The notes under the pieces are model-generated. The model made no database searches and had not been told where the DNA came from. It saw only the letters and a program-made list of their open reading frames with translations. The position numbers were made by a program, and so were the translations under genes. From UHGV virus genome UHGV-0368429: 47,797 nucleotides of DNA. One strand, given 5' to 3'. Positions within the stretch are counted from its first letter, which is position 1; every line of letters begins with the position of its first letter. Origin of the DNA: a virus. Shown piece after piece: positions 6,500-46,809 of this stretch.

Positions 6500-6544
6500 C
6501 TTTCCCCAGTGGCCCTGTTGGGCCACATTTCTGGAGTATTTCCC

Positions 6545-6958
6545 ATGACAGAAAAAGAAACCCTTATCGCCCGACTGAAAGAGCTGGGCGTAAAGCTTGA
6601 TCGTGAGGTCAACGTCACAGGCACCATCCAGGAGCTTACGTTACGTATTTCTGAGCTCGAAGAGGAACTCGACGAAGACGGAGAAGAGGGCGCTGAGGTG
6701 TCCGTTGCCAGCACTACTGCTATCAGCACCTCGGGCCAGCCCGGCCCAGAGAACACCTCTGGCTCTATTACCGAGAATCCTGCGTCAAATGAGCCCGGCG
6801 AGCTGGTGGCGGTTGAGACACTGGTGACCTTGCACATTGATGCACTTCACGCCACACGCAACGAGTCCCTCTCTATTGTTGAGCCTGGTGTCGTTATTCG
6901 CGTGACCGACGCGGAGGCTACCGAACTGATTTCTCAGGGGCTGGCCCGGGAAGTCTGA
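6545..6958 (+). CDS. FI: DNA packaging protein gpFI
   Basis: From ATG at 6545: MTEKETLIARLKELGVKLDREVNVTGTIQELTLRISELEEELDE...; similar to lambda FI at both ends; GGAG upstream. Confidence 0.8.
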   Translation: MTEKETLIARLKELGVKLDREVNVTGTIQELTLRISELEEELDEDGEEGAEVSVASTTAISTSGQPGPENTSGSITENPASNEPGELVAVETLVTLHIDALHATRNESLSIVEPGVVIRVTDAEATELISQGLAREV

Positions 6959-6969
6959 CAGGGGGCTTA

Positions 6970-7323
6970 ATGGCTGATTTCGATAATCTTTTTGATGAAG
7001 CGATGGCGCGCGCGGATACCACTATACGTGGAGTGATGGGCGCAGAGGCAAGGATAACCTCTGGATCTTTATCCGGCGTCACGCTCCGCGGGGTCTTTGA
7101 CGATCCAGAGAACATCGGTTTCGCAGAAGCGGGGATCAGAATTGACGGAACCAAGCCGACGTTTTTTGTGAACTCATCGGATGTAAGCGGGCTGGAACGT
7201 CTGGACACGCTGAAGGTAAACGGGCGTGAATTTTGGGTTGATCGCGTGGGCCCGGATGATTGCGGTTCCTGCCATGTATGGCTGGGTAGTGGATCACCTC
7301 CCGGCGGATCGCGGCGTCGTTAA
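6970..7323 (+). CDS. FII: Head completion protein gpFII
   Basis: 117 aa; MADFDNLFDEAMARADTTIRG...GVFDDPENIGFA... matches lambda FII. Confidence 0.9.
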   Translation: MADFDNLFDEAMARADTTIRGVMGAEARITSGSLSGVTLRGVFDDPENIGFAEAGIRIDGTKPTFFVNSSDVSGLERLDTLKVNGREFWVDRVGPDDCGSCHVWLGSGSPPGGSRRR

Positions 7324-7332
7324 GGAGCATTC

Positions 7333-7917
7333 ATGTCGATAAAAGGTCTTGAGCAGGCGATTGCTAACCTGAATAGCCTGGACAGAAATATGGTTCCCAA
7401 TGCCAGCGCATGGGCTGTGAACCGGGTTGCTGCTAATGGCGTCTCGGTTGCCGTCCGAAGAGTGGCGAAAGAAACGGTAGCCGGTGATAACCGCGTTTCG
7501 GGGATACCTGTAAAGCTGGTCAGACAAAGGGTGAGAATCAACAAAGCCTCGGCGTCAGGGCACTCAGCGGCCCGAATTAAGGTTAACCGGGGCAACCTTC
7601 CCGCCATCAAACTCGGTGCCGCGCAGGTCAGGGCTACGAACCGAAAAGGCCCGCTGGTTCGAAAAAGTAGCGTGCTGAGAATTGGCCGTTATGTTTTTCG
7701 CGACGCCTTTATCCAGCGCCTGGCGAACGGCCGCTGGCACGTCATGAAGCGCATTGCAGGAAAAAGTCGTTATCCCATCGACGTGGTCAAAATCCCATTG
7801 TCCGCGCCCCTCACTACTGCTTTCGAAGCAGAGAAGAAACGCATGCTTGAAGAGGAAATGCCAAAACAACTTGGCTATGCCCTCAGGCAACAACTGAGGT
7901 TGCATCTGACACGATGA
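7333..7917 (+). CDS. Z: Tail completion protein gpZ
   Basis: 194 aa; MSIKGLEQAIANL...RIKVNRGNLPAIKLG...NGRWHVMKRIAGKSRYPIDVVKIP... matches lambda gpZ. Confidence 0.9.
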   Translation: MSIKGLEQAIANLNSLDRNMVPNASAWAVNRVAANGVSVAVRRVAKETVAGDNRVSGIPVKLVRQRVRINKASASGHSAARIKVNRGNLPAIKLGAAQVRATNRKGPLVRKSSVLRIGRYVFRDAFIQRLANGRWHVMKRIAGKSRYPIDVVKIPLSAPLTTAFEAEKKRMLEEEMPKQLGYALRQQLRLHLTR

Positions 7918-8312
7918 AACACACTCTCATTCGCCAGAAAATTATTGATGTGCTTGAAGAGGCCATCGGGATCGACGTCATGTTTTTTGACGGGCGTCCG
8001 GCTGTCATTGAGGAGGAGGATTTTCCTGCCGTCGCGGTCTATCTGACCGATGCGGAGTATACCGGCGAAGAACTTGATGCCGATATGTGGGCGGCAACGT
8101 TACATATCGAGGTCTTCCTGTCATCGCAGGTACCAGATTCCGAACTGGATGAATGGATGGAAAGCCATATCTATCCGGCCCTCGCTGATGTTCCCGGCCT
8201 CGATTCACTGTTAACGCTCATGGTTCCACAAGGCTTCGATTACCAGCGCGATGATGCGATGGGGCTGTGGACCTCCGCCGATATGAAATATTCAATCACT
8301 TACGAAATGTGA
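7914..8312 (+). CDS. U: Tail terminator protein gpU
   Basis: 132 aa; ...[29 protein letters not shown]... matches lambda gpU. Confidence 0.9.
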
Positions 8313-8319
8313 GGAAAAC

Positions 8320-9063
8320 ATGCCAACACCAAATCCACTTGCTCCTGTAAAAGGCGCCGGTACCACCCTCTGGCTTTACACCGGAACGGGCAACGCTTTC
8401 GCTAACCCACTCTCTGATATCGACTGGAATCGCCTGGCGAAAATCAAAGAGCTGACGCCGGGCGAAATGACCGCCGAATCGTATGACGACACTTACCTCG
8501 ACGACGAGGATGCCGACTGGAACGCGACGGCCCAGGGGGCAAAATCTGCTGGCGATACCTCGTTCACCCTCGCCTGGAAGCCGGGCGAAGAAGGGCAAAA
8601 AGACCTGGTCGCATGGTTTATTGATGGCTCAGTACGCTATTACAAAATTAAATACCCGAACGGTACCGTCGACGTTTTCCGCGGCTGGTGCAGCAGTCTG
8701 GGTAAAGCCATTCCGGCAAAAGAGGTCATTACCCGTACAGCGAAAATCACCAATACCGGCAAGCCGGAGCTGGCTGAAGAAAGCGGGACCCCGAATATCC
8801 CCGTGACCGGCGTTACGCTCGATAAAGCCACGGCAAGCGTGGTCGTGGGCGCAACCACAACGCTCAATGTGACGGTTAACCCTGCCAGTGCCTCAGATAC
8901 CTCGTTCCGCGTGGCAACCTCCGACGGGGCAAAAGCAACGGTCACCGTTAGCGGCAACGCGATCACCGTCACCGGCGTGGCGGCAGGTACCGCTGACGTT
9001 ATTGTTATGACCAGCGATGGTAATTTCGTAGCGGTCTGCAAAGTCACCGTAACTGCAGCGTAA
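8320..9063 (+). CDS. V: Major tail tube protein gpV with C-terminal Ig-like domain
   Basis: 247 aa, size and position of lambda gpV; C-terminal [33 protein letters not shown]... looks like a Big_2-type domain. Confidence 0.85.
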
Positions 9064-9073
9064 GGAAGGACGC

Positions 9074-9505
9074 ATGTTTCTGAAAAAAGAGAAGTTCACC
9101 TGGCAAACAGAATCCCTGACCATCTTCGAGCTGTCGGCGCTGCAGCGTATTGAGTACATCACGTTTATGGCCGCAGAGGAAAAGGCCGTCAGCGCTGACA
9201 GCGACGGCATCAGCGATCAGGAAATGACGGCCAGGCTGATTGGCTCAAATATTCGCTGCGGTGCGCGTTTGATCGCGATGTCTTTGTGGCATAACGATCC
9301 GGCTGGCACGGATGTGGAGACGCTTTATCAGCAGGTGCTTAGCGGCTGGCCGCCGGAGGCGATCGGTAAAGCAGAAATGGAAATAAAGCTGCTCTCCGGC
9401 ATGCTCGTTCCGGTTGATGATGACAACGTTGCCGATCCGGATGCCTCCGCGGAGGCCGAAAGCGCTGAACCCGTTACGGCGGAAAAGCCCTTGCCAGCGA
9501 GCTGA
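9074..9505 (+). CDS. G: Tail assembly chaperone gpG
   Basis: 143 aa in the gpG position; ends at TGA 9503..9505. Confidence 0.85.
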   Translation: MFLKKEKFTWQTESLTIFELSALQRIEYITFMAAEEKAVSADSDGISDQEMTARLIGSNIRCGARLIAMSLWHNDPAGTDVETLYQQVLSGWPPEAIGKAEMEIKLLSGMLVPVDDDNVADPDASAEAESAEPVTAEKPLPAS

Positions 9506-14079: not shown

Positions 14080-14799
14080 ATGCGTGAAAAATTGCTGGAT
14101 GCTATCCGTCAGCACGTCGCTGCTGAATACCCCAAAGAAGCCTGCGGCCTGATTGTTCAGTCAGGCCAGCAGCAAATCTATATTCCCTGCCGCAACATTG
14201 CCGATAAACCCGAGGAGACATTCACGCTCTCCCCGGAAGACCAGCTCGCTGCCCGCGCGCGCGGTGAGATCATCATGCTCATTCATTCACATCCGGATGT
14301 GGTTCGGCTGGTGCCCTCAGAGCTGGACCGGATCCAGTGCGACTGGTCGGGTATTGAGTGGGGGATCATGTCCTGGCCGGACGGGGACTTTTGTACGATC
14401 TCCCCGCGTGAAGACCGGGATTATGCCGGGCGGCAGTGGGTGCTGGGTTACGCGGACTGCTGGTCGTTAATCCGTGAATATTATCTGCGCGAATACGGCA
14501 TTGTTCTCGGGGACTATTCGGTACCTTACGAATGGTGGGAGAGCGGCAAGGAGCGGCTCTACGACGACAACTGGGAGCGCGAGGGATTCGTTGAGATTGC
14601 CGCCGGTGCAATGCAGCCCGGTGACATCATCATGATGAGTGTGCAGGCATCGGTGACTAATCACGCCGCGGTATATGTGGGTGACAACATCATTCTCCAT
14701 CATCTGTTCGGGCATCTTTCTTCGCGAACGCCTTATGGAAAATATTATCGCGACAGAACGGTCCGGGTGGTCAGGCATAAGGACCGAATGCATGGTTAA
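14080..14799 (+). CDS. K: Tail tip assembly protein gpK (NlpC/P60 + JAB-like)
   Basis: From ATG 14080: MREKLLDAIRQHVAAEYPKEACGLIVQ...HSHP... matches lambda gpK; the listed ORF start at 13981 lies inside L. Confidence 0.85.
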   Translation: MREKLLDAIRQHVAAEYPKEACGLIVQSGQQQIYIPCRNIADKPEETFTLSPEDQLAARARGEIIMLIHSHPDVVRLVPSELDRIQCDWSGIEWGIMSWPDGDFCTISPREDRDYAGRQWVLGYADCWSLIREYYLREYGIVLGDYSVPYEWWESGKERLYDDNWEREGFVEIAAGAMQPGDIIMMSVQASVTNHAAVYVGDNIILHHLFGHLSSRTPYGKYYRDRTVRVVRHKDRMHG

Positions 14800-15409
14800 G
14801 ACGCTTATTCTCGAAGGGAAAATGGCTAAAAAATTCGGTAAACGCGTTCAGTTTGATGTTGCCGATCTGCGCGAAATGCTCAGGGCCATGTGTTCACAGG
14901 TTCCCGGATTCAAAAAATATATGTCGGAAGCTCATATGAAGGGGATCCGTTTCGCCTTTTTTAACGGTGACAACAATATCGGGCTGGAAGAGTTTGATAT
15001 GACCCGCGGTGGAAGCGTGTACCGGATCGTGCCCGTTTATGAGGGGGCCAAAAATTCAGGCGTCCTGCAGATAGTTGTCGGTGCCGTTGCGCTGGTCGCT
15101 GCATTCTTTACCGCCGGTGCGAGTATGGCAGCCTGGGGGGCTGCGATGAGTGCAACAGCCATCAGCGCCACGTCAATTTTGACCGGGGTCGGGGTGTCAA
15201 TGATGCTGGGTGGCGTTGTCCAGATGCTTACGCCCCAGCCATCCTTCGGCGCGGGTAAATCCTCCAGCACGGACAACACGCCTAACTACGCCTTCGGGGC
15301 GCCGGTTAATACCGTCGCTATGGGGCATCCAGTCCCCCTGGCCTATGGTCTGATCGAGGCAGGGGGAGCGATAGTCAGCGCCGGTATGTACTCGAGCGAT
15401 CAGCAATAG
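14792..15409 (+). CDS. I: Tail tip assembly protein gpI
   Basis: ...CSQVPGFKKYMSEAHMKGIRFAFFNGDNNIGLEEFDMTRGGSVYRIVPV... matches lambda gpI; ATG 14792 overlaps the K stop; exact start uncertain (alternative 14822). Confidence 0.8.
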   Translation: MVKTLILEGKMAKKFGKRVQFDVADLREMLRAMCSQVPGFKKYMSEAHMKGIRFAFFNGDNNIGLEEFDMTRGGSVYRIVPVYEGAKNSGVLQIVVGAVALVAAFFTAGASMAAWGAAMSATAISATSILTGVGVSMMLGGVVQMLTPQPSFGAGKSSSTDNTPNYAFGAPVNTVAMGHPVPLAYGLIEAGGAIVSAGMYSSDQQ

Positions 15410-15488
15410 TGAAATGCAACCTAATAAGATGAACGTTACATTGCGATCACCCTTGGTTATCATGTCCAAAAAGATGCCAATCAAGGAG

Positions 15489-15971
15489 ATGAAAGTGAAA
15501 AAATACGGTTTGGTCTTATTAGGTGTGCTGTTTATTTCAGGTTGTGCCCCCCAAAATCAGAACAACAATTTACAAAAACAATACGCTGACTTAGCAAAGT
15601 GTGAAGATAACATCACGATGCCAAAACAAATGCCGCAAAGTAAAAAGGAGTTTGCGGAGTTTTTATCCAAGGCTGCGCTTAGTGCCTCGGCAGATCAGTT
15701 TGTTACCCAGAAGCGTATAGAAATTCTGCAATTAGTTGGGTGGGATAATTCAGTAGCTGATGCAATAACGACATGTGGAGCTACCAGAAAGAGCAAGCTA
15801 AAAGATATTGGGTCGAATGTGTTTGAAACGATGAAAGCAAACACTAAAGATACAGAAGAGCGTCGCGCTCTTGTTGAGGCTTATAGTTCGTGGGAGGCTT
15901 ATGTAACCAGCCAAACTCCGCTCGCAAAACAGGACTTTGACTCTAAAGTTAGCTATTACAAAAACATGTAA
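15489..15971 (+). CDS. AT-rich moron: predicted lipoprotein of unknown function inserted between I and J
   Basis: Signal peptide with lipobox MKVKKYGLVLLGVLFISG|C; AAGGAG SD; visibly lower GC than flanking tail genes; start uncertain (ATG 15489 or GTG 15495). Confidence 0.6.
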   Translation: MKVKKYGLVLLGVLFISGCAPQNQNNNLQKQYADLAKCEDNITMPKQMPQSKKEFAEFLSKAALSASADQFVTQKRIEILQLVGWDNSVADAITTCGATRKSKLKDIGSNVFETMKANTKDTEERRALVEAYSSWEAYVTSQTPLAKQDFDSKVSYYKNM

Positions 15972-16000
15972 TAAAACGCCATCATTAATACTAACAATTA

Positions 16001-16024
16001 ACCCAGCTCAGGCTGGGTTTTTTA
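16001..16024 (+). terminator. Rho-independent terminator after the I-J moron
   Basis: ACCCAGC-TCAG-GCTGGGT followed by TTTTT, just before the J start. Confidence 0.6.
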
Positions 16025-16035
16025 ATGGGGTAAAA

Positions 16036-19000
16036 ATGCAACTTCTCCATGGTGAAACCATCATTCAGGGTGCTAAAGGGGGCGGTGGGAGCGCGCATAC
16101 TCCGGTTGAGCAACCTGACGATTTGCTGTCGGTCGCAAAATTAAAAATGCTCATTGCCGTTTCTGAGGGGGAAATACAGGGCGACCTGACCGCACAGAAC
16201 ATTTTTCTCAACGATACGCCGCTTGCAAACGACAGCGGGGAATACAACTTCAGCGGCGTGAAATGGGAATTCCGGAAGGGCACACAGGACCAGACCTATA
16301 TTGCCGGGATGCCCCAGGTCGATAACGAGCTGGCGGTTGGCACAACTGTCACCACCACCGCGCCATGGACGCGCCAGTTTACCAACCTTTCCCTGGATGC
16401 CATCCGCATCAAGCTCAGCCTTCCGGTCCAGTATCTCTATAAAGATAACGGCGATATGGTGGGCACGGTCACCGAGTATGCGATCGATTTATCAACGGAT
16501 GGCGGCGCCTGGAAAACGGTTGTAAACGGCAAGTTTGACGGAAAGACCACGACGGAATATCAGCGTGACCACCGTATTGATCTGCCAAAATCCACGTCCG
16601 GCTGGTCTGTCAGGGTCAGGCGTATTACGGCTGATGCCAGCGGATCAAATTCGAAACTGGTTAACGCCTTCAAGGTGTTTTCGTATGCGGAAGTCATCGA
16701 CAGCAAGCTTCGTTATCCTTTAACCGCGCTCCTGTATGTCGAAGTGGACAGCAGCCAGTTCAACGGCAGCGCGCCGAAAGTGACCTGTAAGATAAAAGGC
16801 AAGCTGATTAAGGTTCCGGATAATTACGATCCGATAACCCGAACCTATTCTGGTTCATGGTCCGGCGGGTTCAAAATGGCCTGGTCCAATAACCCTGCCT
16901 GGATCTTTTACGATCTGGTTCTGGATGAAATTTACGGCATGGGCACGCGCGTGGATGCGTACATGGTGGATAAGTGGGCGCTGTATTCAATTGCACAGTA
17001 TTGCGACGAAATGGTTTCCGACGGCGCCGGTGGTACCGAACCGCGTTTCACCTGCAACGTTTTCATTCAGAGCCAGGAGGACGCCTGGCAGGTACTTAAC
17101 GATCTCGCCGCGGTATTTCGTGGAATAACGTTCTGGGGCAACGATCAGATTTATGTCCAGGCAGACGTCCCGCAGGACGATGTTGACTGGGTTTATAACG
17201 CCTCAAACGTTATCGATGGGCTGTTTACTTATGCGGGCGGCTCATACAAGAATCGCTACAGCTCCTGCCTCGTGTCCTGGTCCGATCCGCAGAACCATTA
17301 CAGCGATACCGTTGAGGGAGTCTACGATTCAGAGCTTGTAGAGCGTTACGACGTCAGGCAAACGTCCCTGACCGCAATCGGCTGCACCTCGCAAAGTGAA
17401 GCGCACCGGCGCGGTCGCTGGGTATTACTCTCCAATGCCAAAGACGGGACCGTATCGTTTGGGGTGGGGCTGGACGGCTATATTCCTCTGCCCGCTGAAA
17501 TTATCGGTGTCGCCGATCCTTTCCGTTCCGGAAAGGAGAACGGGGGCCGCATAGTGGCGGTCAATGGCCGCCAGATTACGCTGGATCGAGAAATAGATTA
17601 CGCAGCGAAAGACCGGCTGGTGGTTAACCTGCCCGACGGAAAAGCCCAGACGCGGACAATCAGCGCGGTGAGCGCCGATAAAATAACGGTGACGGTGGCT
17701 ACGGCCTTCAGTCAGGCACCTGCCGCTGGTGCTGTCTGGGCGATAGACAGTGATAACCTCGCGATACAGTACTTCCGGGTCACTTCAATCGCGGCCAACG
17801 ATGACAGCACAGGCGGTTTCACAATTACGGCCGTTCAGCACGATCCAAACAAATACCGTTACATCGATGACGGCGTTCGGATCGAGTCGCCCCCGATCAC
17901 CGTCACGCCGATAAGCGTCCTGTCTGCGCCGAAGAATATCGTGGTGACTGAGAGCGATCATGTGTCTCAGGGTCTGACGGTAGCAAGCCTTGACGTGTCA
18001 TGGGACAAGGTTGAGGGCGCAATCCGGTACGTTGCCCAGTGGCGCAAGGATAACGGGGACTGGATCAACGTTCCGGTTACCAGCGCGCAGGGGTTCTCGG
18101 TTCAGGGCATTTATTCAGGCAGCTATGATGTGCGCGTCCGGGCGCTGAATGCGCAGGATACGTCGTCACCATGGGGATACGCCGAAACAACGTACCTTTC
18201 CGGAAAAACGGGAAAACCGGGTACCCCGCTCAACTTCCTGGCGACCGAAGATGTGGTCTGGCATATCGATCTGACCTGGAAATTTCCGGATGGCTCAGGC
18301 GACACGGCCTATACAGAGATTCAGCGCGCCACAACCTCTGACTACGCCAATCCTGAACTGCTGGTCCTGGTGCCGTACCCGGCTGCAGATTATCAGCATG
18401 GCCCCATGCCTGCTGGCGTTCGCCAGTGGTACCGCGCGCGCCTGATTGACCGTATCGGTAATGTCGGTGACTGGACCGACTGGGTCATGGGCACGTCCTC
18501 GATAGATGTCAGCGAAATAACCAATGACATTCTGGAGGACATGAAAGATTCCGACACGTTCAAAGACCTGATCGAGAACGCGGTGGACAGCAATGAAAAA
18601 GTTGCAGGCATGGCGGATGACATCAAAAAGCATGCCGACGAGCTGGAGCAGCAGGCGAAAGACATCCAGGAGAACGCTGACGGGCTGGCGCAGGCCGAAG
18701 TGAAGATAGACGAGATTTCAGTGTCGATGGACGGCATGACGGGAGGTGTGAAGAACTCGGCAATTGCGATAATCCAGGCCAACCTTGCTCAGGTGGCCAC
18801 GCGTAAAACTCTGTCGGCATCGGTAGCCGGTAACAGCGCACAGCTGGACCGCATTGATGAGGTGATCGTCACTGACAGGGAGGCAACGGCACGCGCATTG
18901 CTGAGCCTGCAGACGAACGTCAACGGTAATACGGCATCCATCAACAGTCTGAGCCAGACGGTTTCGAATTATCAGCAGGCCACGGCGACGCAGATCAACG

Positions 19001-19500
19001 CCATCACTGCGACCATAAACGGTAATACGGCGGCGATAACAACAAACGCCCAGGCCATTGCGAACGTAAACGGCCAGCTCAGCGCGATGTACAACATCAA
19101 GGTTGGGGTAACGAGTAATGGCCAGTATTACGCCGCAGGCATGGGGATCGGGGTGGAGAATACGCCATTAGGGATGCAGTCGCAGGTTATCTTCCTGGCC
19201 GATCGTTTTGCCGTGACTACTGCAGCCGGTAACAGCGTGGCGTTGCCGTTTGTTATTCAGAACGGGCAGACGTTCATCAGGGCCAGCTTCATTCAGGACG
19301 GTACCATTGAGAACGCTAAAATCGGCAACTTTATTCAGTCCAATAACTATGTGGCTGGATCTGTAGGCTGGAAGCTTGATAAGGGAGGAACGTTCGAAAT
19401 TAACGGTGTGGGCGGAGGTGGAAGGATGCTGATATCGAGCACTCTCATTCAAATCTACGACAGCAATAACGTGCTGCGCGTCAGAATGGGGTTATGGTAA
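16036..19500 (+). CDS. J: Tail tip / central fibre host-specificity protein gpJ
   Basis: From ATG 16036, about 1154 aa; broad similarity to lambda gpJ (e.g. ...AWSNNPAWIFYDLVLDEIYGMG..., FTITAVQHDP); C-terminal roughly 250 aa diverge from lambda. Confidence 0.9.
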   Translation: MQLLHGETIIQGAKGGGGSAHTPVEQPDDLLSVAKLKMLIAVSEGEIQGDLTAQNIFLNDTPLANDSGEYNFSGVKWEFRKGTQDQTYIAGMPQVDNELAVGTTVTTTAPWTRQFTNLSLDAIRIKLSLPVQYLYKDNGDMVGTVTEYAIDLSTDGGAWKTVVNGKFDGKTTTEYQRDHRIDLPKSTSGWSVRVRRITADASGSNSKLVNAFKVFSYAEVIDSKLRYPLTALLYVEVDSSQFNGSAPKVTCKIKGKLIKVPDNYDPITRTYSGSWSGGFKMAWSNNPAWIFYDLVLDEIYGMGTRVDAYMVDKWALYSIAQYCDEMVSDGAGGTEPRFTCNVFIQSQEDAWQVLNDLAAVFRGITFWGNDQIYVQADVPQDDVDWVYNASNVIDGLFTYAGGSYKNRYSSCLVSWSDPQNHYSDTVEGVYDSELVERYDVRQTSLTAIGCTSQSEAHRRGRWVLLSNAKDGTVSFGVGLDGYIPLPAEIIGVADPFRSGKENGGRIVAVNGRQITLDREIDYAAKDRLVVNLPDGKAQTRTISAVSADKITVTVATAFSQAPAAGAVWAIDSDNLAIQYFRVTSIAANDDSTGGFTITAVQHDPNKYRYIDDGVRIESPPITVTPISVLSAPKNIVVTESDHVSQGLTVASLDVSWDKVEGAIRYVAQWRKDNGDWINVPVTSAQGFSVQGIYSGSYDVRVRALNAQDTSSPWGYAETTYLSGKTGKPGTPLNFLATEDVVWHIDLTWKFPDGSGDTAYTEIQRATTSDYANPELLVLVPYPAADYQHGPMPAGVRQWYRARLIDRIGNVGDWTDWVMGTSSIDVSEITNDILEDMKDSDTFKDLIENAVDSNEKVAGMADDIKKHADELEQQAKDIQENADGLAQAEVKIDEISVSMDGMTGGVKNSAIAIIQANLAQVATRKTLSASVAGNSAQLDRIDEVIVTDREATARALLSLQTNVNGNTASINSLSQTVSNYQQATATQINAITATINGNTAAITTNAQAIANVNGQLSAMYNIKVGVTSNGQYYAAGMGIGVENTPLGMQSQVIFLADRFAVTTAAGNSVALPFVIQNGQTFIRASFIQDGTIENAKIGNFIQSNNYVAGSVGWKLDKGGTFEINGVGGGGRMLISSTLIQIYDSNNVLRVRMGLW

Positions 19501-19802: not shown

Positions 19803-20440
19803 GTGGATTCGAAGTTTATAACAGTGCTGGAAAATTGCTGGTTGATTCACAAAACAGATCAACACTTTTTTATGATCAGCGTGTGCTCGGCGCAGTGACT
19901 GACAAAGGACATTACCGTGTGGATAGTCCGTTCGGAAACGGAAGCACACTGGGCTTTACCCAGCCGCAGTTCTGGAATGATGGGAATTTGCGTTGGCTGC
20001 AGCTGGATACTAATAAGTATGGCTTACCAGGCGCTGACCTTCTGGAAGACAATGCGGGCAGTATGATACGCACGTCCAGAAACGTTGGAATGCAAAGCGG
20101 ATATCTGGATGTTTTCGACAGCGCGGGGAATCTTATCTGGAGCGCCGCCTCGGCATCGAAAATGCCGCGCGTGGTGGGCTTTTTCGACGTGCCGGCCAAT
20201 TACGATCTACAGAACAATACCTTTGCGGTAAACCTGAGTTTTAACCCGTGGATTCTGGTTAACAACTGCCCTGGTAACCTCAGTGACGACGGTACGGTTG
20301 TTGGTTATTCAGGAATCGTTCTCAAATGGACAGGCTCACAGCTGCAGGGGAGGTACATCACAAAAAATCAGCGCAACTGGAGCCAGACACTTCAGGGGCG
20401 AGGGCTACGAATTCCCATCGCTCAGTTTGTCGGAATTTGA
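19799..20440 (+). CDS. Hypothetical protein coupled to the preceding ORF (possible tail-tip accessory)
   Basis: ATGA overlap with upstream stop; 213 aa; contains motifs FEVYNSAGKLL and LDVFDSAGNLIW that echo the J C-terminus IQIYDSNNVLRV. Confidence 0.5.
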   Translation: MSGFEVYNSAGKLLVDSQNRSTLFYDQRVLGAVTDKGHYRVDSPFGNGSTLGFTQPQFWNDGNLRWLQLDTNKYGLPGADLLEDNAGSMIRTSRNVGMQSGYLDVFDSAGNLIWSAASASKMPRVVGFFDVPANYDLQNNTFAVNLSFNPWILVNNCPGNLSDDGTVVGYSGIVLKWTGSQLQGRYITKNQRNWSQTLQGRGLRIPIAQFVGI

Positions 20441-20767
20441 TACGGGCGGGACGCGGGGGTATTGAGTAGCGATCATGTTTTGCTTAACACCTTTTGCAGG
20501 TTCGAAGCGGTATACGACATCAAGCTTATCCGTTTTCTTATAACAGATGTTGCTGAGCCGCTTATTTATATGTCGGCTGAAAATGCCATTGCTGCTGTCT
20601 GAAATTACGTTAACTTCCCTCGTGGCACAGTCGATATTTACGTGAATATCTCCCCCCAGAGATAAGCGCGCCGCATCCACCGGGTAATCCATTCTGAAGG
20701 CATAGTCTCTGTCTTTGTCGGCACAGCCAGCCGCCAGCAAAAGTGCCACGGCAAATAATCGTTTCAT
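20405..20767 (-). CDS. Predicted lipoprotein, convergent with the tail operon (possibly a Cor-like exclusion protein; inference only)
   Basis: MKRLFAVALLLAAG|C lipobox signal; 120 aa; 3' end overlaps the preceding plus-strand ORF by 36 bp. Confidence 0.5.
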   Translation of the reverse strand: MKRLFAVALLLAAGCADKDRDYAFRMDYPVDAARLSLGGDIHVNIDCATREVNVISDSSNGIFSRHINKRLSNICYKKTDKLDVVYRFEPAKGVKQNMIATQYPRVPPVSNSDKLSDGNS

Positions 20768-22213: not shown

Positions 22214-22417
22214 ACAATACTCAGGCATCTAACAAGTAAAACGCCGCCCATCGCATGCAAGAATTTGCGGCGGCTAAAATCTGCTCATTAAGAGTTACTG
22301 CCATAAAATTTACAAAACTCATAATTCGAAACGACATAGAAACTTAGAAACGAAACGGCGAAGCTTTAAGCATTCATCACAGACCCTCTGTCTTGCGTGC
22401 ATACTCAAATGAAACTA

Positions 22418-22433
22418 CTGTATATAAAAACAG
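22418..22433. promoter_or_regulatory. LexA (SOS) box upstream of umuD
   Basis: CTGTATATAAAAACAG = CTGT-N8-ACAG with AT-rich spacer, 18 bp before the umuD ATG; identical in form to the E. coli umuDC operator. Confidence 0.85.
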
Positions 22434-22450
22434 TGTTTGAGGTATGCAAC

Positions 22451-22870
22451 ATGGAATTTATCAGGCCTGCAGAACTGCGAGAAATTATAGCTCTCCCGCT
22501 TTTCAGTGACTTAGTGCAGTGTGGTTTCCCAAGCCCAGCGGCTGATTACGTTGAACAGCGCATCGATCTCAATGAGTTACTTGTTGCTCACCCGAGCTCA
22601 ACGTATTTCGTCAAAGCCGCGGGCGATTCTATGATCGAAGCCGGGATCAGCGACGGTGATCTGCTGGTAGTGGACAGCTCCAGGACTGCTGAGCATGGTG
22701 ACATTGTCATCGCTGCGGTGGAAGGGGAGTTCACTGTTAAACGCCTGCAGCTGCGCCCGAACGTGCAACTAAACCCTATGAACAGCGCCTACAGTCCGAT
22801 AGTTATTGGCTGCGAAGATACGCTGGACGTTTTCGGCGTCGTGACTTTCATCGTTAAATCGGCGAGCTGA
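22451..22870 (+). CDS. umuD: UmuD-like error-prone polymerase accessory subunit (S24 peptidase)
   Basis: [45 protein letters not shown]...KAAGDSM... closely matches E. coli UmuD as recalled. Confidence 0.9.
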
Positions 22871-22872
22871 AC

Positions 22873-24141
22873 ATGTTCGCGCTCTGTGATGTGAATTCGT
22901 TCTACGCATCATGCGAGACGGTGTTTCGGCCTGATTTGAGGGGGCGCCCGGTTGTCGTTCTCTCGAATAATGATGGCTGCGTAATTGCGCGCAGCGCCGA
23001 GGCCAAAGCCGCCGGAATTACCATGGGTGAGCCTTTCTTCAAGCAAAAGGAGCTTTTCCGGCGCGCTGGCGTTGTTTGCTTCAGCAGCAATTACGAGCTG
23101 TACGCTGATATGTCGAACCGGGTAATGACGACGCTGGAAGAAATGAGCCCTCGCGTCGAAATATATAGCATCGATGAAGCTTTTTGCGACCTTACTGGTG
23201 TTCGAAACTGCCGGGACCTGACAGAGTTTGGCAAAGAGATCCGCGCGACGGTTCTGAAGCGTACGCACCTGACTGTCGGGATTGGCATCGCGAAAAGTAA
23301 GACCCTTGCAAAGCTGGCAAATCACGCCGCCAAAAAATGGCAGCGTCAGACGGGCGGAGTTGTTGATTTGTCCAATATCGATCGCCAGCGTCGGTTGTTG
23401 GCTATTGTGCCTGTGGAGGACGTATGGGGCGTCGGCAGGCGCATCAGTAAGAAGCTGAACGCCATGGGCATCAAAACGGCTCTGGACCTCTCAGAACAAA
23501 GCACATGGATTATCCGTAAACACTTTAACGTGGTACTCGAGCGAACGGTCCGGGAGTTGCGCGGCGAGCCTTGTCTTGATCTGGAGGAGTTTGCACCAGC
23601 TAAGCAGGAAATCGTCTGCAGTCGGTCATTCGGTGAACGCGTTACCGAATACGAACAGATGCGGCAGGCTATTTGCAGCTATGCGGCGCGTGGTGCTGAA
23701 AAGCTTCGCGGCGAACATCAGTATTGCCGTTTTATCTCTGCGTTCGTGAAGACGTCACCTTTTGCCCTGAACGAGCCGTATTACGGCAACAGCGCGTCAG
23801 TGAAGCTTCTCACCCCCACTCAGGATTCCCGCGACATCATCAACGCCGCGGTAAAGTGCCTGGACAAAATCTGGAAGGATGGGCACCGCTATCAAAAGGC
23901 TGGAATTATGCTGGGAGATTTTTTCAGTCAAGGGGTGGCACAGCTGAACCTTTTCGATGAGCACGCGCCGCGCGCTGGAAGCGATAAGTTGATGGATGTG
24001 CTCGATCACTTGAACGCGAAAGAAGGGAAAGGAACACTCTTCTTTGCCGGGCAGGGCATTCAACAGCAGTGGCAGATGAAGCGGCAGTTGCTTTCACCCC
24101 GATATACTACTCGCATATCAGATTTATTAATTGTGAAGTAA
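22873..24141 (+). CDS. umuC: UmuC-like Y-family translesion DNA polymerase (Pol V catalytic subunit)
   Basis: 422 aa; [41 protein letters not shown]... is the Y-family N-terminus; immediately follows umuD. Confidence 0.9.
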
Positions 24142-24166
24142 AAAGGCTGCTTAACGCAGCCTTTTT
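24141..24166. terminator. Bidirectional rho-independent terminator (umuC and convergent small ORF)
   Basis: AAAA-GGCTGC-TTAAC-GCAGCC-TTTTT; A-run on one side, T-run on the other. Confidence 0.7.
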
Positions 24167-24172
24167 AGTTAA

Positions 24173-24322
24173 TTAAGCAGCTTTTTTCTCGCTGCATTTG
24201 CAATGAGGGATAACAAAAACTTTCGCCTTTTTAGGGCGGATGATTTTACCATCCTTCATTACATAGGGCGTGAAGGTTACTTCACACGAATTCCCACATT
24301 TTGGACAATAGCCAGTTTTCAT
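24173..24322 (-). CDS. Unlisted small ORF (49 aa): zinc-ribbon-like protein, putatively SOS-regulated
   Basis: Translated by hand (below the 60-aa listing cutoff): MKTGYCPKCGNSCEVTFTPYVMKDGKIIRPKKAKVFVIPHCKCSEKKAA*; CPKC...HCKC; GGAG about 7 nt before ATG; LexA box 28 bp upstream; terminator downstream. Confidence 0.5.
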   Translation of the reverse strand: MKTGYCPKCGNSCEVTFTPYVMKDGKIIRPKKAKVFVIPHCKCSEKKAA

Positions 24323-24349
24323 GTGAGATCTCCTATGTAAATGTACAGC

Positions 24350-24365
24350 CTGTAAATCTAAACAG
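24350..24365. promoter_or_regulatory. LexA (SOS) box upstream of the small zinc-ribbon ORF
   Basis: CTGTAAATCTAAACAG = CTGT-N8-ACAG with AT-rich spacer. Confidence 0.65.
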
Positions 24366-24476
24366 ATTGCACCTTGTTAGGAGAACCACTATACTTTTAG
24401 CCGTCAAGCATTTTGTGTAGCGGTAGATTTCTCCATACACACCGAGTTATGCGTCAACATAGCTCGCCCCCTAAGA

Positions 24477-24500
24477 AGCCCTGCGTCAACAGGGCTTTTT
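24477..24500. terminator. Hairpin terminator just past the ImmA-like gene
   Basis: GCCCTG-CGTCAA-CAGGGC followed by TTTTTT on the plus strand, preceded by A-rich sequence. Confidence 0.5.
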
Positions 24501-24983
24501 TCAATAAAATTCAAAGCAAAGCTGTGCTGTTTGATAGCCCAATTTATCGAGCATCGTTTCTGCGAAAAGATCCGCCTGCCATTCAGAATCTTCATTTTGT
24601 TCCGGCATGGCATTCGCAAAGTGTAAGGCTGGCTTATGTTGTAGTAGCAAGTGCCCGAGCTCATGGAATATAACAAATAACGCTGATCGTTCACCGCCAC
24701 ATGCCATTTCATAGATATGGTTTGGAACCCTGATAGTCAGTTTGTCAGGTTCACAGTGTCCAATCGTTAGACCCAGCGTTTCCTGAAACCATTCGTCATC
24801 ATCCATTGGATCGAGGACAATATTCCATTGAGATAATGTTTCCAGCGCTACGTCAAATCTGCGCGGTCTACGCCGGTATTTATACTTACTAGTAAATCCG
24901 AGTGCAAAGCAAGCATTTACAGCTATCGCTTTAATTTCCATTTCACTCAGAGGACGAACACGTGTACCGCGCATTAAATGCAT
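24501..24983 (-). CDS. ImmA/IrrE-family zinc metallopeptidase (COG2856-like)
   Basis: 160 aa with HEXXH motif (FHELGHLLLQH); immediately downstream of an XRE HTH gene in the same orientation; AT-rich. Confidence 0.7.
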   Translation of the reverse strand: MHLMRGTRVRPLSEMEIKAIAVNACFALGFTSKYKYRRRPRRFDVALETLSQWNIVLDPMDDDEWFQETLGLTIGHCEPDKLTIRVPNHIYEMACGGERSALFVIFHELGHLLLQHKPALHFANAMPEQNEDSEWQADLFAETMLDKLGYQTAQLCFEFY

Positions 24984-25000
24984 AACAGTTTCCTAAGCAG

Positions 25001-25360
25001 TTATTTTTTGTTGATTTCTGCAAGTAATTCTGCAAATTTTTTTAATTCTTCATGGGTGAATTCCGATTTTGCAAAACCAGCAACAAGCATTTGTTGTTGC
25101 TTTGGTAAACCTTCAATAGGTACCAATTCATTCGCGATAGAAGCTAAAACATCGAGATCATCAATGTAATAACCTTGCGCTGCAAAAAGTTCATTGATTG
25201 CCGTTACCCATTTCTCTGGTATTTTTTTAGTCCCTGTTTCGAGCCCGCTTAGAAAAGCAGGTGTTGTTCCTAAAGCCTTTGCCATTGTAAGCAAAGTATA
25301 ACCAGTATCGATCCGAGCTTTCCTTACGGCCTTTCCGAAATCAGTAAGAGCCATAGTCAT
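25001..25360 (-). CDS. XRE-family helix-turn-helix transcriptional regulator
   Basis: 119 aa; N-terminal HTH (…FGKAVRKARIDTGYTLLTMAKALGTTPAFLSGLETG…); paired with the ImmA-like gene. Confidence 0.7.
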   Translation of the reverse strand: MTMALTDFGKAVRKARIDTGYTLLTMAKALGTTPAFLSGLETGTKKIPEKWVTAINELFAAQGYYIDDLDVLASIANELVPIEGLPKQQQMLVAGFAKSEFTHEELKKFAELLAEINKK

Positions 25361-43854: not shown

Positions 43855-44070
43855 ATGTATCGAATGGAAAAAATCACGACGGGTATTGCATACGGCGCAT
43901 CGGGAGGGGGGACCGGATACTGGTTGCTTCAGCTCCTCGATAAAGTCTCCCCATCTCAATGGGCGGCTATTGGTGTGCTCGGTAGCCTCATGTTTGGTTT
44001 GCTGACGTGGTTAACGAGTCTGTACTTCCAAATCAAAGCGGATCGCCGCAAAGCTGCGCGGGGTGAATGA
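43855..44070 (+). CDS. S: Pinholin (phage 21 S-type) with dual-start motif
   Basis: [45 protein letters not shown]...[11 protein letters not shown] closely matches S21 as recalled. Confidence 0.9.
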
Positions 44071-44606
44071 TGTCGAACAAAGCAAAGCTCAGCGCAGCAG
44101 TGCTGGCGCTAATCGCGTCAGGGGCATCTGCGCCACTCATTTTCGACCAGTTCATCAGCGAGAAAGAAGGAAACGCGCTGGTGGCCGTTGTTGATCCTGG
44201 CGGGGTCTGGTCTCTATGTCACGGCGTGACCGTTATCGATGGCAGGCGTGTTGTTAAAGGCATGACGGCCACTGAGGAACAATGCCGGAAGGTTAACGCT
44301 ATTGAACGCGATAAGGCATTAGCCTGGGTTGATCGCAATATCAAAGTGCCTCTGACAGAGCCACAGAAGGTGGGTATCGCATCCTTCTGCCCGTATAACA
44401 TCGGCCCCGGTAAATGCTTCCCATCGACCTTCTATAAGCGTATCAACGCAGGTGACCGCATCGGTGCATGCGAGGCAATCCGCTGGTGGATTAAAGATGG
44501 TGGCCGTGATTGTCGTCTAACCAAAGGCCAGAAGAATGGCTGCTATGGTCAGGTTGAGCGACGGGACCAGGAAAGCGCGCTGGCGTGCTGGGGGTTAGAC
44601 CAATGA
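44067..44606 (+). CDS. R: SAR endolysin (phage 21 R-type lysozyme)
   Basis: 179 aa; N-terminal signal-anchor-release domain followed by lysozyme core (E...D...T: …[25 protein letters not shown]…); overlaps holin stop and Rz start. Confidence 0.85.
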
Positions 44607-45118
44607 AAATTAATCCGGGTCTTTTAGGCGTTGTTGTTATTGCCGTCCTTTCGGTCGCTCTCGTTAAGAGTTGCTCCAACGCCAGTAGTCTTCAGAGCGA
44701 TATCGACGTTCTGCGAAGTGACAACTCTATGCAGGGGCAGGTGATCGCCACCCAGGCATTCAACTTCAATCGATTCAATCAGGTTGCAGAACATGCCAAC
44801 AGGCTTAACTCCCTGATCGACACTAGCACCGAAGAAACCGTAATCGAATACCGGGAGATACTCCGCCGTGAAAAAACCTGTGATCTGCCTGTTCCTGCTG
44901 ACATTGCTGGTGGGCTGCTCGAATACGCGTACCGTTTACGTTCCAGCGCAATGCACGCCGATACCGACGGAACTGACGCAGCCGATGATAGTACCGCTGC
45001 CGCCCGTTCAATAACGTACTGCCAGGCTGTGCTCTGGATTAAGCCGTTGCTGGCCGTAATAGAGAAGGGCAACAATAACTTCGCTGGCATTCGTCAAGTA
45101 GAACAGGAGCGACAATAG
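44603..45118 (+). CDS. Rz: i-spanin Rz
   Basis: From ATG 44603: N-terminal TM helix ([21 protein letters not shown]) then charged helical region; ATGA overlap with the endolysin stop. Confidence 0.8.
   Translation: MKINPGLLGVVVIAVLSVALVKSCSNASSLQSDIDVLRSDNSMQGQVIATQAFNFNRFNQVAEHANRLNSLIDTSTEETVIEYREILRREKTCDLPVPADIAGGLLEYAYRLRSSAMHADTDGTDAADDSTAAARSITYCQAVLWIKPLLAVIEKGNNNFAGIRQVEQERQ
44868..45014 (+). CDS. Rz1: o-spanin Rz1, embedded in Rz in the +1 frame (unlisted, 48 aa)
   Basis: Hand-translated from GTG 44868: (M)KKPVICLFLLTLLVGCSNTRTVYVPAQCTPIPTELTQPMIVPLPPVQ*; lipobox LVGC and Pro-rich C-terminus. Confidence 0.7.
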   Translation: MKKPVICLFLLTLLVGCSNTRTVYVPAQCTPIPTELTQPMIVPLPPVQ

Positions 45119-45274
45119 GTATGGGCAAATCCTAACGTGAAAATCTGCAGCAGCATTTCCATTATGTTTGGCTGTAAATTATCTATCACCATAGGTTTCT
45201 TGCGTCATCAGGTAATAGACCGACCTCATAAAAAGAGGTAAATTATTACTTTACGTTGCGCTCAGGTAGACGAG

Positions 45275-46063
45275 ATGGAAGAACGTCATCACAGCTATAT
45301 CCTTAAAACTATTGAAGAAATAGGAAGGGGTGGGTTCGGTTACGTTGAAAAAATTGAACTTTTCAATGTTAACGGTCACAAATGCGGTGACTACGCCAAA
45401 AAGATTTTGGCGCAGGATCATGGGCTTAGCAAAGAGGACTTCAAAAGAAGATTCAAACGGGAAGTGGATTATCAGGCTAGGTGTACGCACTCGAATATAG
45501 CGCCTATATATCTACACAATCTTCAGGTTGATAGTCCTTGGTTTGTTATGGATCTCGCTGAAAGTGATTTAAGTACAGATTTAGCCTCAGGCACGCTCGA
45601 TAATGCAAGCAAAATGCATATTGCAGAAATGATCCTTTCAGGGGTACGTTTCATGCATACAGAGAAAACTAATGATCCAGGACGTAAGCCAGTATATTTA
45701 CACCGTGATTTAAAGCCATCTAATATTCTTCGTTTTAAAGATGGAGTTTACAAAATTTCCGATTTTGGTTTAGTAAAAAATGCAGGAAAAGAAAGACCAG
45801 AATCTGAGCTTTTAACAAGAGTCGCTACAGCCATGGGAACGCTCAAATACATGGCTCCTGAGATAACAACAGCTGGGCATTACTCAGAGCAAACTGACAT
45901 TTTTGCTCTCGGAGTAGTTATTGATGATATGGGGTTTGATAACGTTAATGGTATTAGACAGTTAATCGATAAATGCACCGCCTGGAGAGCTGCAAGCCGA
46001 TACAAATCGGTTGATGATATGATGCAGGAACTGGCTGATATAAAAATAAGGAATGGGCTATGA
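45275..46063 (+). CDS. Hanks-type Ser/Thr protein kinase (AT-rich moron)
   Basis: 262 aa with GRGGFGYV (P-loop), YAKK (Lys), HRDLKPSN (catalytic loop), SDFG, APE. Confidence 0.85.
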   Translation: MEERHHSYILKTIEEIGRGGFGYVEKIELFNVNGHKCGDYAKKILAQDHGLSKEDFKRRFKREVDYQARCTHSNIAPIYLHNLQVDSPWFVMDLAESDLSTDLASGTLDNASKMHIAEMILSGVRFMHTEKTNDPGRKPVYLHRDLKPSNILRFKDGVYKISDFGLVKNAGKERPESELLTRVATAMGTLKYMAPEITTAGHYSEQTDIFALGVVIDDMGFDNVNGIRQLIDKCTAWRAASRYKSVDDMMQELADIKIRNGL

Positions 46064-46809
46064 TTACCCTACTTTCAAGTGGTCTTTTCTCTTACGCTAA
46101 AAGTTCTTCGCGTACTAATCAGGATTCTATTCTTGCTCCACAGTGCATCGATAATGGCTATTTGATTGCTGTCGCTGATGGCGTTGGCTCGTACTTGGGC
46201 GCAGAACACGCTTCACAAACAGCAATTAAATATTTAGCGAACCTAATCAATGCTTCTTCTATCCAAGATCTTGATAGCCTCTTCGCCACAATAAAAGAAA
46301 AGATTTCTGCGTTATCTGACGCTGATGAATCCTATTTAGAAGCTGCAACGACGTTGACGTTTGCATATGTAAACAATCAAGGTTTGTACATTGGTCATGT
46401 TGGTGATTGTCGTTTGTATATTAAAAAAGATAATAAACTCAAACAACTAACGAAAGATCATACCCAACATCAAAAACTGTTGGATCAGAAGATTTTCAAT
46501 AAAAAAGAACTTAAGGATATGGGGGGGAAAAACACCCTAACAACTGCGATTTCTAAAGTTATCCCATTGGAATTTCAACAAACGTTTATTCCTGCGTCTG
46601 AAGTTTTCGAAGACAACGAAGAGGCCACTCTCTACATTCTTTCAGATGGAGCACACCACTTCTGGGATAAGAGACCAAGATTCTCAATCACTACTTTGAG
46701 CAATCCAAACTGTTTTGCAGCTAGCTTGCATAAACGAATTATTCGTAATGGGCCTATAGATGATTTTTCTTTGGTTGTAGCCAAGTTCAAGCGCAGCAGT
46801 GTTAACTAA
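46060..46809 (+). CDS. PP2C-family Ser/Thr protein phosphatase (AT-rich moron, coupled to the kinase)
   Basis: 249 aa; metal-binding motifs VADGVGS, HVGDCRLY, ILSDGAHH; ATGA overlap with the kinase stop. Confidence 0.75.
   Translation: MITLLSSGLFSYAKSSSRTNQDSILAPQCIDNGYLIAVADGVGSYLGAEHASQTAIKYLANLINASSIQDLDSLFATIKEKISALSDADESYLEAATTLTFAYVNNQGLYIGHVGDCRLYIKKDNKLKQLTKDHTQHQKLLDQKIFNKKELKDMGGKNTLTTAISKVIPLEFQQTFIPASEVFEDNEEATLYILSDGAHHFWDKRPRFSITTLSNPNCFAASLHKRIIRNGPIDDFSLVVAKFKRSSVN

Follow-up and report, generated by a model that had tools for sequence, protein, structure and literature searches.

A morF-type lipoprotein moron between tail genes I and J of a phi80-like temperate siphophage

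We analysed the virus genome UHGV-0368429 as a single stretch of 47,797 nucleotides (hereafter the window), in which a block of 626 base pairs (bp) at positions 15410-16035 separates the tail genes I and J. The genome is that of a phi80-like temperate siphophage, with a tail module 94-99% identical to those of phi80, LLS, Flotzy, and mEp213. To the left of the block lies tail assembly gene I (14795-15409, plus strand; stop codon TAG at 15407-15409), whose product matches Pfam Lambda_tail_I and PHROG 32 and shares 98-99% amino acid identity with the I proteins of phi80, LLS, and mEp213. To the right lies the tip attachment and host specificity gene J (16036-19500, plus strand), which encodes the Pfam domains FNIII-A_GpJ, Phage-tail_3, and Phage_Tail_Tip. 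The block has a G+C content of 0.401, whereas I stands at 0.551, J at 0.547, and the full window at 0.520; a value as low was reached in just 3% of 626-bp windows. We are nearly certain that this block corresponds to morF, the moron known from temperate siphophages of the phi80 type, i.e., a foreign cassette of approximately 0.6 kb placed exactly at the start of J.

This identification follows from database comparisons. A megablast search with the block returned five phage records at 91-93% identity, namely Flotzy, Eeyore, and three records of phi80. The block shares 92% nucleotide identity with phi80 morF, and the encoded proteins share approximately 95% amino acid identity. The window protein falls in PHROG 8179 (phrog_8179, function unknown) with E = 1.5e-74 and 158 of 159 positions covered; it was assigned to no family in Pfam or NCBIfam. 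The morF gene, its promoter, its signal peptide, and its terminator are already known, being annotated in GenBank records of phi80. Record FN582354 labels the product (CBH95072) 'MorF lipoprotein precursor; moron gene product' and marks -35 and -10 elements, a transcription start site, a signal-peptidase-II signal peptide, a lipidated cysteine, and a rho-independent terminator, and record JX871397 names the gene (PHI80_20) morF with the product 'hypothetical protein'. No functional study of MorF was found in the literature searched by name, by accessions, and for lipoprotein morons. In the window, morF occupies the I-J junction as it does in phi80, with the promoter, lipobox, and terminator as annotated there. 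In contrast, the window allele is full length, whereas in the phi80 allele (locus L002, JX871397, 6086-6538) an early TAA costs the protein its nine conserved C-terminal residues, SKVSYYKNM; the window phage also differs from phi80 in having another J C-terminus and another lipoprotein in the slot that phi80 uses for cor.

A preliminary description of this DNA, made from the letters of the window, had proposed that the lipoprotein gene was inserted within the tail gene cluster. Comparison of the I-J junction with those of related phages confirmed this. Our survey covered 80 IMG/VR loci that encode an I protein 63-100% identical to that of the window. The I-J spacer was 51-55 bp long and empty in 61 of these loci, 625-631 bp long and occupied by morF in 16, and 473 bp or 888 bp long in two that carry other inserts with minus-strand open reading frames; one locus was left unscored, J not being located. 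Phages LLS and mEp213/mEp043 encode I and J 89-99% identical to those of the window, with 94-99% for LLS and mEp213, but have a spacer of approximately 55 bp and lack morF. The LLS and mEp213 junctions align to the window base for base up to the stop codon of I, and again from the start and ribosome-binding region of J. Since the spacer is also empty in the most distant relatives, the empty state is ancestral. The reverse scenario, deletion of the gene in the relatives, is rejected in view of the uniform empty spacer, even at 63% I identity, together with the foreign G+C content of the cassette.

The boundaries of the block are marked by a nine-nucleotide direct repeat, AAATGCAAC, on the plus strand. 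The left copy (15412-15420) duplicates the J start region and thereby creates a spurious ATG at 15414; it is kept in phi80 and Flotzy. The right copy (16034-16042) includes the J start codon at 16036. Repeats of 9-11 nucleotides are common in this AT-rich stretch, with four families in 701 bases. The presence of copies at both boundaries suggests that illegitimate or microhomology recombination brought the cassette in at the start of J. Elsewhere, the I-J position holds unrelated cargo: minus-strand open reading frames of 103 and 210 amino acids (locus L140, 3615-4089; locus L141, 3615-4504) and a plus-strand open reading frame of 121-138 amino acids (locus L009, 10810-11300). Given such unrelated cargo in some relatives, the I-J junction is a recurrent insertion slot.

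Within the block, morF (15495-15971, plus strand; stop codon at 15969-15971) encodes a prolipoprotein of 158 amino acids. Its likely start is the GTG at 15495, which lies 6 nucleotides beyond a Shine-Dalgarno sequence, AAGGAG (15483-15488, plus strand), read from the sequence; use of the alternative ATG at 15489 would leave the mature protein unchanged. We rejected the upstream ATG at 15414, which would open a frame of 185 amino acids, as this is the duplicated J start codon and homologs elsewhere begin at the MKK position. The gene is followed on the plus strand by a terminator-like element at 16000-16025, consisting of a hairpin (16000-16019; 8-bp stem, 4-nucleotide loop) and a T-run (TTTTTT, 16020-16025); the hairpin folds at -15.6 kcal/mol (z = -3.87 versus shuffles). 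Hence the low-G+C block, ribosome-binding site, lipoprotein gene, and hairpin terminator of the preliminary description are all present. A hairpin and T-run of unrelated sequence also lie downstream of the morF homologs in loci L012, L045, and L063, and the empty I-J spacers of relatives hold a hairpin and T-run of their own, different in sequence. In LLS (locus L003, 3411-3465) and mEp213 (locus L004, 3411-3464), for example, the empty spacer holds a GC-rich hairpin with T-run, AAAGGTGCTTCGGCACCTTTTTTT, within the late operon before J. A terminator-like element before J thus predates the insert and is not peculiar to it. A search of Rfam gave no match anywhere in the window.

The cassette also carries a sigma-70-like promoter motif (15435-15463, plus strand), in which GTTACA (15435-15440) and TATCAT (15458-15463) are separated by 17 nucleotides and match the consensus at 9 of 12 positions. 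This shares its -10 element with the promoter first proposed, TTACAT-16-TATCAT, but the -35 register of that proposal fits less well. A scan at the same 9/12 level found two such matches in 2 kb compared to 2.6 expected. We therefore base the promoter prediction on conservation in homologs, a single 9/12 match being at chance level. In Citrobacter-type homologs that occupy another junction, GTTACA-17-TATTAT occurs at the same distance from the gene. Between the clade at I-J and that at the junction of tail genes H and M, the upstream region (-60 to -1) is 65-77% identical and the coding sequence 57-77% identical, and the homology ceases upstream of position -60. Even at different junctions, the upstream region thus matches the coding sequence in conservation, and the promoter-like element travels with the gene.

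A profile search of 1.84 billion proteins recovered 27 representatives of the family, one of which (P0069) was rejected as a spurious repetitive protein; at 90% identity, the homologs form 45 clusters. Homologs of 56-64% protein identity were found in prophages of Citrobacter, Enterobacter, Salmonella, Kluyvera, Atlantibacter, and Pseudescherichia, and all of the approximately 35 loci concerned place the gene right after the tape measure gene H, ahead of M. A homolog of 45% identity likewise lies at H-M and one of 43% identity lies between K and I. A further homolog, at 27% identity, lies off the tail genes; its neighbours are a Q-type antiterminator, HigB/HigA, and a type I restriction-modification system. 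In the tail module, whether at I-J, H-M, or K-I, morF is co-oriented with the late genes. The cassette is thus extra DNA compared to relatives, deviates in base composition, ends in a terminator-like hairpin, and recurs in multiple contexts; this anatomy bears out its earlier designation as a moron and fits the definition of that term (PMC3594210), with promoter activity being predicted.

Other genes were observed at these junctions. At the H-M loci, variable added cargo of 0.1-5 kb often lies 3' of the morF homolog, including minus-strand SNIPE/T5orf172 genes; in loci L006-L011, from Citrobacter-type prophages, a protein of 537 amino acids with SNIPE/T5orf172/MUG113 similarity is encoded at 6544-8157 (minus strand), past the MorF homolog. 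Locus L012 holds a SocA_Panacea-domain gene (8728-9171) between K and I.

The gene is maintained under purifying constraint on its protein, as judged from pairwise ratios of nonsynonymous to synonymous substitution (dN/dS) of 0.07 in the I-J clade, 0.08 in the H-M clade, and 0.12 between clades; on the value of 0.07 we rejected a non-coding frame. Alleles at I-J are intact in 17 of 19 cases. Besides the truncated phi80 allele, one IMG/VR allele (locus L026, 3362-3565) has a nonsense codon at position 68, and these broken alleles indicate that morF is dispensable for virion production. Among 185,579 species representatives, the family was present in five, each a member of the Enterobacteriaceae; among 5426 complete E. 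coli genomes, it was present in three, of which two are from laboratory strains.

The N-terminus of MorF is a predicted lipoprotein signal peptide, MKKYGLVLLGVLFISG, followed directly by Cys17, the predicted site of lipidation (15495-15545 for both, plus strand; Cys codon at 15543-15545). It has the basic n-region, the hydrophobic h-region, and, within the first 35 or so residues, the lipobox ([LVI][ASTVI][GAS]C) expected of a signal peptidase II substrate. The lipobox already recognized in the preliminary description is well supported by the family: Cys17 is invariant in 25 of 25 members, a PROSITE-type lipobox rule fits 23 of the 25, and Pfam LPAM_1 matches eight members. Cleavage by signal peptidase II is predicted at LFISG|C. 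In enterobacteria, the +2 residue, i.e., that following the lipidated cysteine, governs lipoprotein sorting. This residue is Ala in the window protein and A, S, T, or V across the family, never Asp, and MorF is accordingly predicted to be anchored to the outer membrane by its inner leaflet and to point into the periplasm.

Residues C17, C94, L126, W133, and Y155 are invariant in the family down to 19% identity. At least 90% of members also share C36, the motif E+xALIxAYSxWExY, and the C-terminal YYKNM. C36 and C94 may form a periplasmic disulfide. An AlphaFold2 model built from a 22-sequence alignment (mean predicted local distance difference test score, 83.5; predicted template modelling score, 0.74) has a disordered segment at residues 1-21, corresponding to the signal peptide and a tether, and five helices (residues 22-34, 50-81, 85-116, 120-139, and 142-157). 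By these predictions, MorF is a bundle of five helices in the periplasm, held to the outer membrane by a short flexible tether. We considered whether the protein is an o-spanin and rejected this on the grounds of wrong size, wrong composition, and a gene location outside the lysis cassette.

What MorF does can be approached from its location, its predicted topology, and its weak similarities. We tentatively favour receptor-independent exclusion at a periplasmic step of phage entry, a reading that we infer and hold to be somewhat less than probable. The gene would be expressed from its own promoter in lysogens, and additionally during late transcription; MorF would engage a periplasmic protein partner; and a post-adsorption entry step of incoming lambda-like siphophages would be blocked, whatever outer-membrane receptor they use. 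We favour exclusion because the family occurs almost exclusively in lambda-like tail modules and because HK97 gp15 provides a precedent. Exclusion genes are known from tail modules, namely those for HK97 gp15 and Cor, and gp15 is an inner-membrane superinfection exclusion protein encoded by a moron in the tail operon (PMC3594210). Like morF, HK97 gene 15 is a single-gene moron within a lambda-like tail operon and co-oriented with the late genes, and it serves as a model for receptor-independent exclusion. The two differ in that gp15 is located in the inner membrane and its gene lies between those for the tail chaperone and the tape measure, whereas MorF is a predicted outer-membrane lipoprotein; they share no PHROG or Pfam link, by which gp15 is set apart without direct sequence comparison.

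Several points weigh against exclusion. The PADLOC-DB 2.0 collection gave zero families at E <= 1, fold searches gave no informative match, and no data on MorF expression or phenotype were found in the literature searched. The promoter match is by itself at chance level, and one distant homolog (27% identity) is found away from the tail genes. Residence in tail modules may simply mark where insertions are tolerated. Furthermore, the rarity of the family (3/5426 and 5/185,579, as above) implies that any benefit is narrow, and a role against envelope threats other than phages fits the data about equally well.

The sole functional lead from the sequence is a weak similarity to the LprI/DUF1311 domain. 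LprI/DUF1311 (PF07007) matched the window protein with E = 0.17 and 12.7 bits, below the gathering threshold of 22. This similarity is sub-threshold yet consistent, being found in 5 of the 25 members with a best match at E = 0.0055 (17.5 bits, against the same threshold). Weak matches were also obtained to Protein Data Bank entry 6ar7, for which the family profile reached E = 0.72 and member P0067 reached E = 0.01; in this alignment, Cys stands opposite Cys and an L..A..W motif is in register. The fold-search lists contained neither 6ar7 nor any named lysozyme inhibitor. Like LprI-domain proteins (represented by M. tuberculosis LprI, Salmonella ScwA, and 6ar7), MorF is a predicted exported, helical, cysteine-containing protein, and the two have in common the motif C...(F/Y)..(L/M)+...E+.AL..A(Y/Q)..W..(Y/F). 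It differs in its added N-terminal helix and conserved C-terminal YYKNM, in addition to the sub-threshold scores.

As a distant LprI/DUF1311 relative, MorF could inhibit or modulate periplasmic enzymes that cleave peptidoglycan, a possibility that we regard as unlikely but second to exclusion. The lysogen would be shielded from lysozyme-like or NlpC/P60-type attack, e.g., by host lysozyme, bacteriocins, type VI secretion system amidases, or phage tail-tip hydrolases; Spackle of phage T4 acts against the last of these. Alternatively, MorF would tune host lytic enzymes, as ScwA does in Salmonella. The consistency of the LprI matches and the register of the 6ar7 alignment favour this possibility, as does the agreement of the conserved cysteines and periplasmic location with LprI-domain proteins (PMC7933661). 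The presence of an NlpC/P60 domain in the product of the nearby tail gene K also speaks for it. Nevertheless, every LprI score is under the Pfam gathering threshold (12.7-17.5 versus 22 bits). Moreover, no inhibitor activity is proven for the LprI domain as such, and Salmonella ScwA, a periplasmic disulfide-bonded LprI-domain protein, alters the levels of MltD and not sensitivity to lysozyme (PMC7933661). Gene K (14080-14799, plus strand) encodes a JAB/MPN domain in addition to its NlpC/P60 peptidase domain, and would be a speculative target for a periplasmic inhibitor.

A version of exclusion that draws on the same similarity is distinctly less probable. Here, MorF would be the first of a new family of helical proteins, tethered to the outer membrane and located in the periplasm, that may be distant relatives of DUF1311; by binding a conserved tail-tip component, they would let lysogens exclude lambda-like siphophages irrespective of receptor. 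The bound component would be one that crosses the periplasm, e.g., the C-terminus of the tape measure protein or the NlpC/P60 protein K. If true, this would make MorF the siphophage counterpart of T4 Spackle.

It is about as doubtful that morF is a host-fitness gene unrelated to phage or cell-wall attack, conferring Bor-like serum resistance, adhesion, or tolerance of envelope stress. Pfam includes models for both Bor and TraT, and MorF matched no named lipoprotein family at E <= 1; further, the +2 rule predicts a periplasmic rather than a surface-exposed orientation, and the gene is rare. Such a role would be in keeping with the gut or clinical Enterobacteriaceae that serve as hosts. It would also be in keeping with the moron anatomy and outer-membrane lipoprotein product, given that lambda Bor, an outer-membrane lipoprotein, is likewise the product of a moron and is expressed by the prophage (PMC3594210). 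MorF resembles Bor in these predicted features, but the Pfam search at E <= 1 gave no sequence relation between the two proteins. The location differs as well, lambda bor lying near the lysis genes rather than in the tail module.

Less probable again is masking of the phage's own receptor, which the preliminary description had offered as a role and which the variation of the tail tip disfavours. By this account, MorF would inactivate the outer-membrane receptor of the phage from the periplasmic side, in the manner of Cor or T5 Llp. The account draws on the position of an outer-membrane-type lipoprotein gene beside J, and on Cor and Llp as precedents for receptor-inactivating lipoproteins (PMC3594210). 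Cor (of phi80, N15, and HK022) and Llp are, like MorF, small phage lipoproteins of the tail region and exclusion candidates, and both inactivate FhuA. However, Cor tracks J tips of the FhuA type, whereas MorF does not track J type: morF alleles 91-96% identical to the window protein are paired with J C-terminal regions (260 residues) that are 31-100% identical to that of the window, and they co-occur with cor, with an unrelated lipoprotein of 120 amino acids, or with neither. Conversely, LLS has a J C-terminus 98% identical to that of the window and the same 120-residue lipoprotein, but lacks morF. This uncoupling of morF from both the J C-terminus and the cor slot makes masking of its own receptor unlikely. 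Nor does sequence connect the two proteins, a BLASTP alignment of MorF with Cor being confined to the 18-residue signal peptide.

The cor slot of the window is, moreover, already filled by a lipoprotein that tracks J type. This predicted lipoprotein of 120 amino acids (MKRLFAVALLLAAGC..., 20405-20767, minus strand) occupies the position of cor in phi80 and mEp213 and belongs to PHROG 25729, of unknown function; no Pfam or PADLOC match was found for it. In the loci checked (LLS, Flotzy, L026, and L030), it is found together with J C-termini that share 75-98% identity with that of the window. The J tip of Flotzy is nearer to that of phi80, yet Flotzy carries the 120-residue lipoprotein and phi80 carries cor. 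If receptor-specific exclusion is sought, we consider this protein a stronger candidate than MorF.

Equally improbable is that MorF is a helper of the lytic cycle, expressed from the late operon only and without a role in the lysogen, where it would block re-adsorption of progeny to debris or aid envelope disruption: co-orientation with the late genes at all three tail junctions and the chance-level promoter match would agree with this, but clades at different junctions have kept the promoter-like motif and 5' region as well as they have kept the coding sequence, a distant homolog is encoded away from the late operon, and truncated alleles persist in the viable phages phi80, a working laboratory phage, and L026.

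The window contains further cargo away from the I-J junction. A UmuD-like protein (Peptidase_S24) and a UmuC-like protein (IMS, IMS_C, and DUF4113) are encoded at 22397-24141 (plus strand), 3' of the side tail fibre gene; this pair represents translesion-polymerase cargo in a phi80-like phage, and phages PHB10 and Oslo have matches to it. The low-G+C block at 24100-25050 holds genes (24501-25360, minus strand) for an ImmA/IrrE-type Peptidase_M78 protein and an adjoining helix-turn-helix (XRE-type) protein. Finally, positions 45275-46809 (plus strand) encode first a Ser/Thr protein kinase (Pkinase, E = 2.7e-34) and then a PP2C phosphatase, in a low-G+C block (45050-46450, 38-40% G+C) past the lysozyme gene (44067-44606). 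The kinase/phosphatase pair may be another cargo or defence module.

The observation of morF in the window adds little by itself and is of modest value. Its use lies in the gene being a clean single-gene test case without a described function: phages with and without morF but with near-identical tails exist naturally (the window phage and Flotzy versus LLS), and phi80 supplies a natural C-terminal truncation of MorF. More broadly, lambda-like tail modules have recurrent slots for cargo at their H-M, K-I, and I-J junctions, and a cassette comprising a predicted promoter and a single gene has come to occupy all three.

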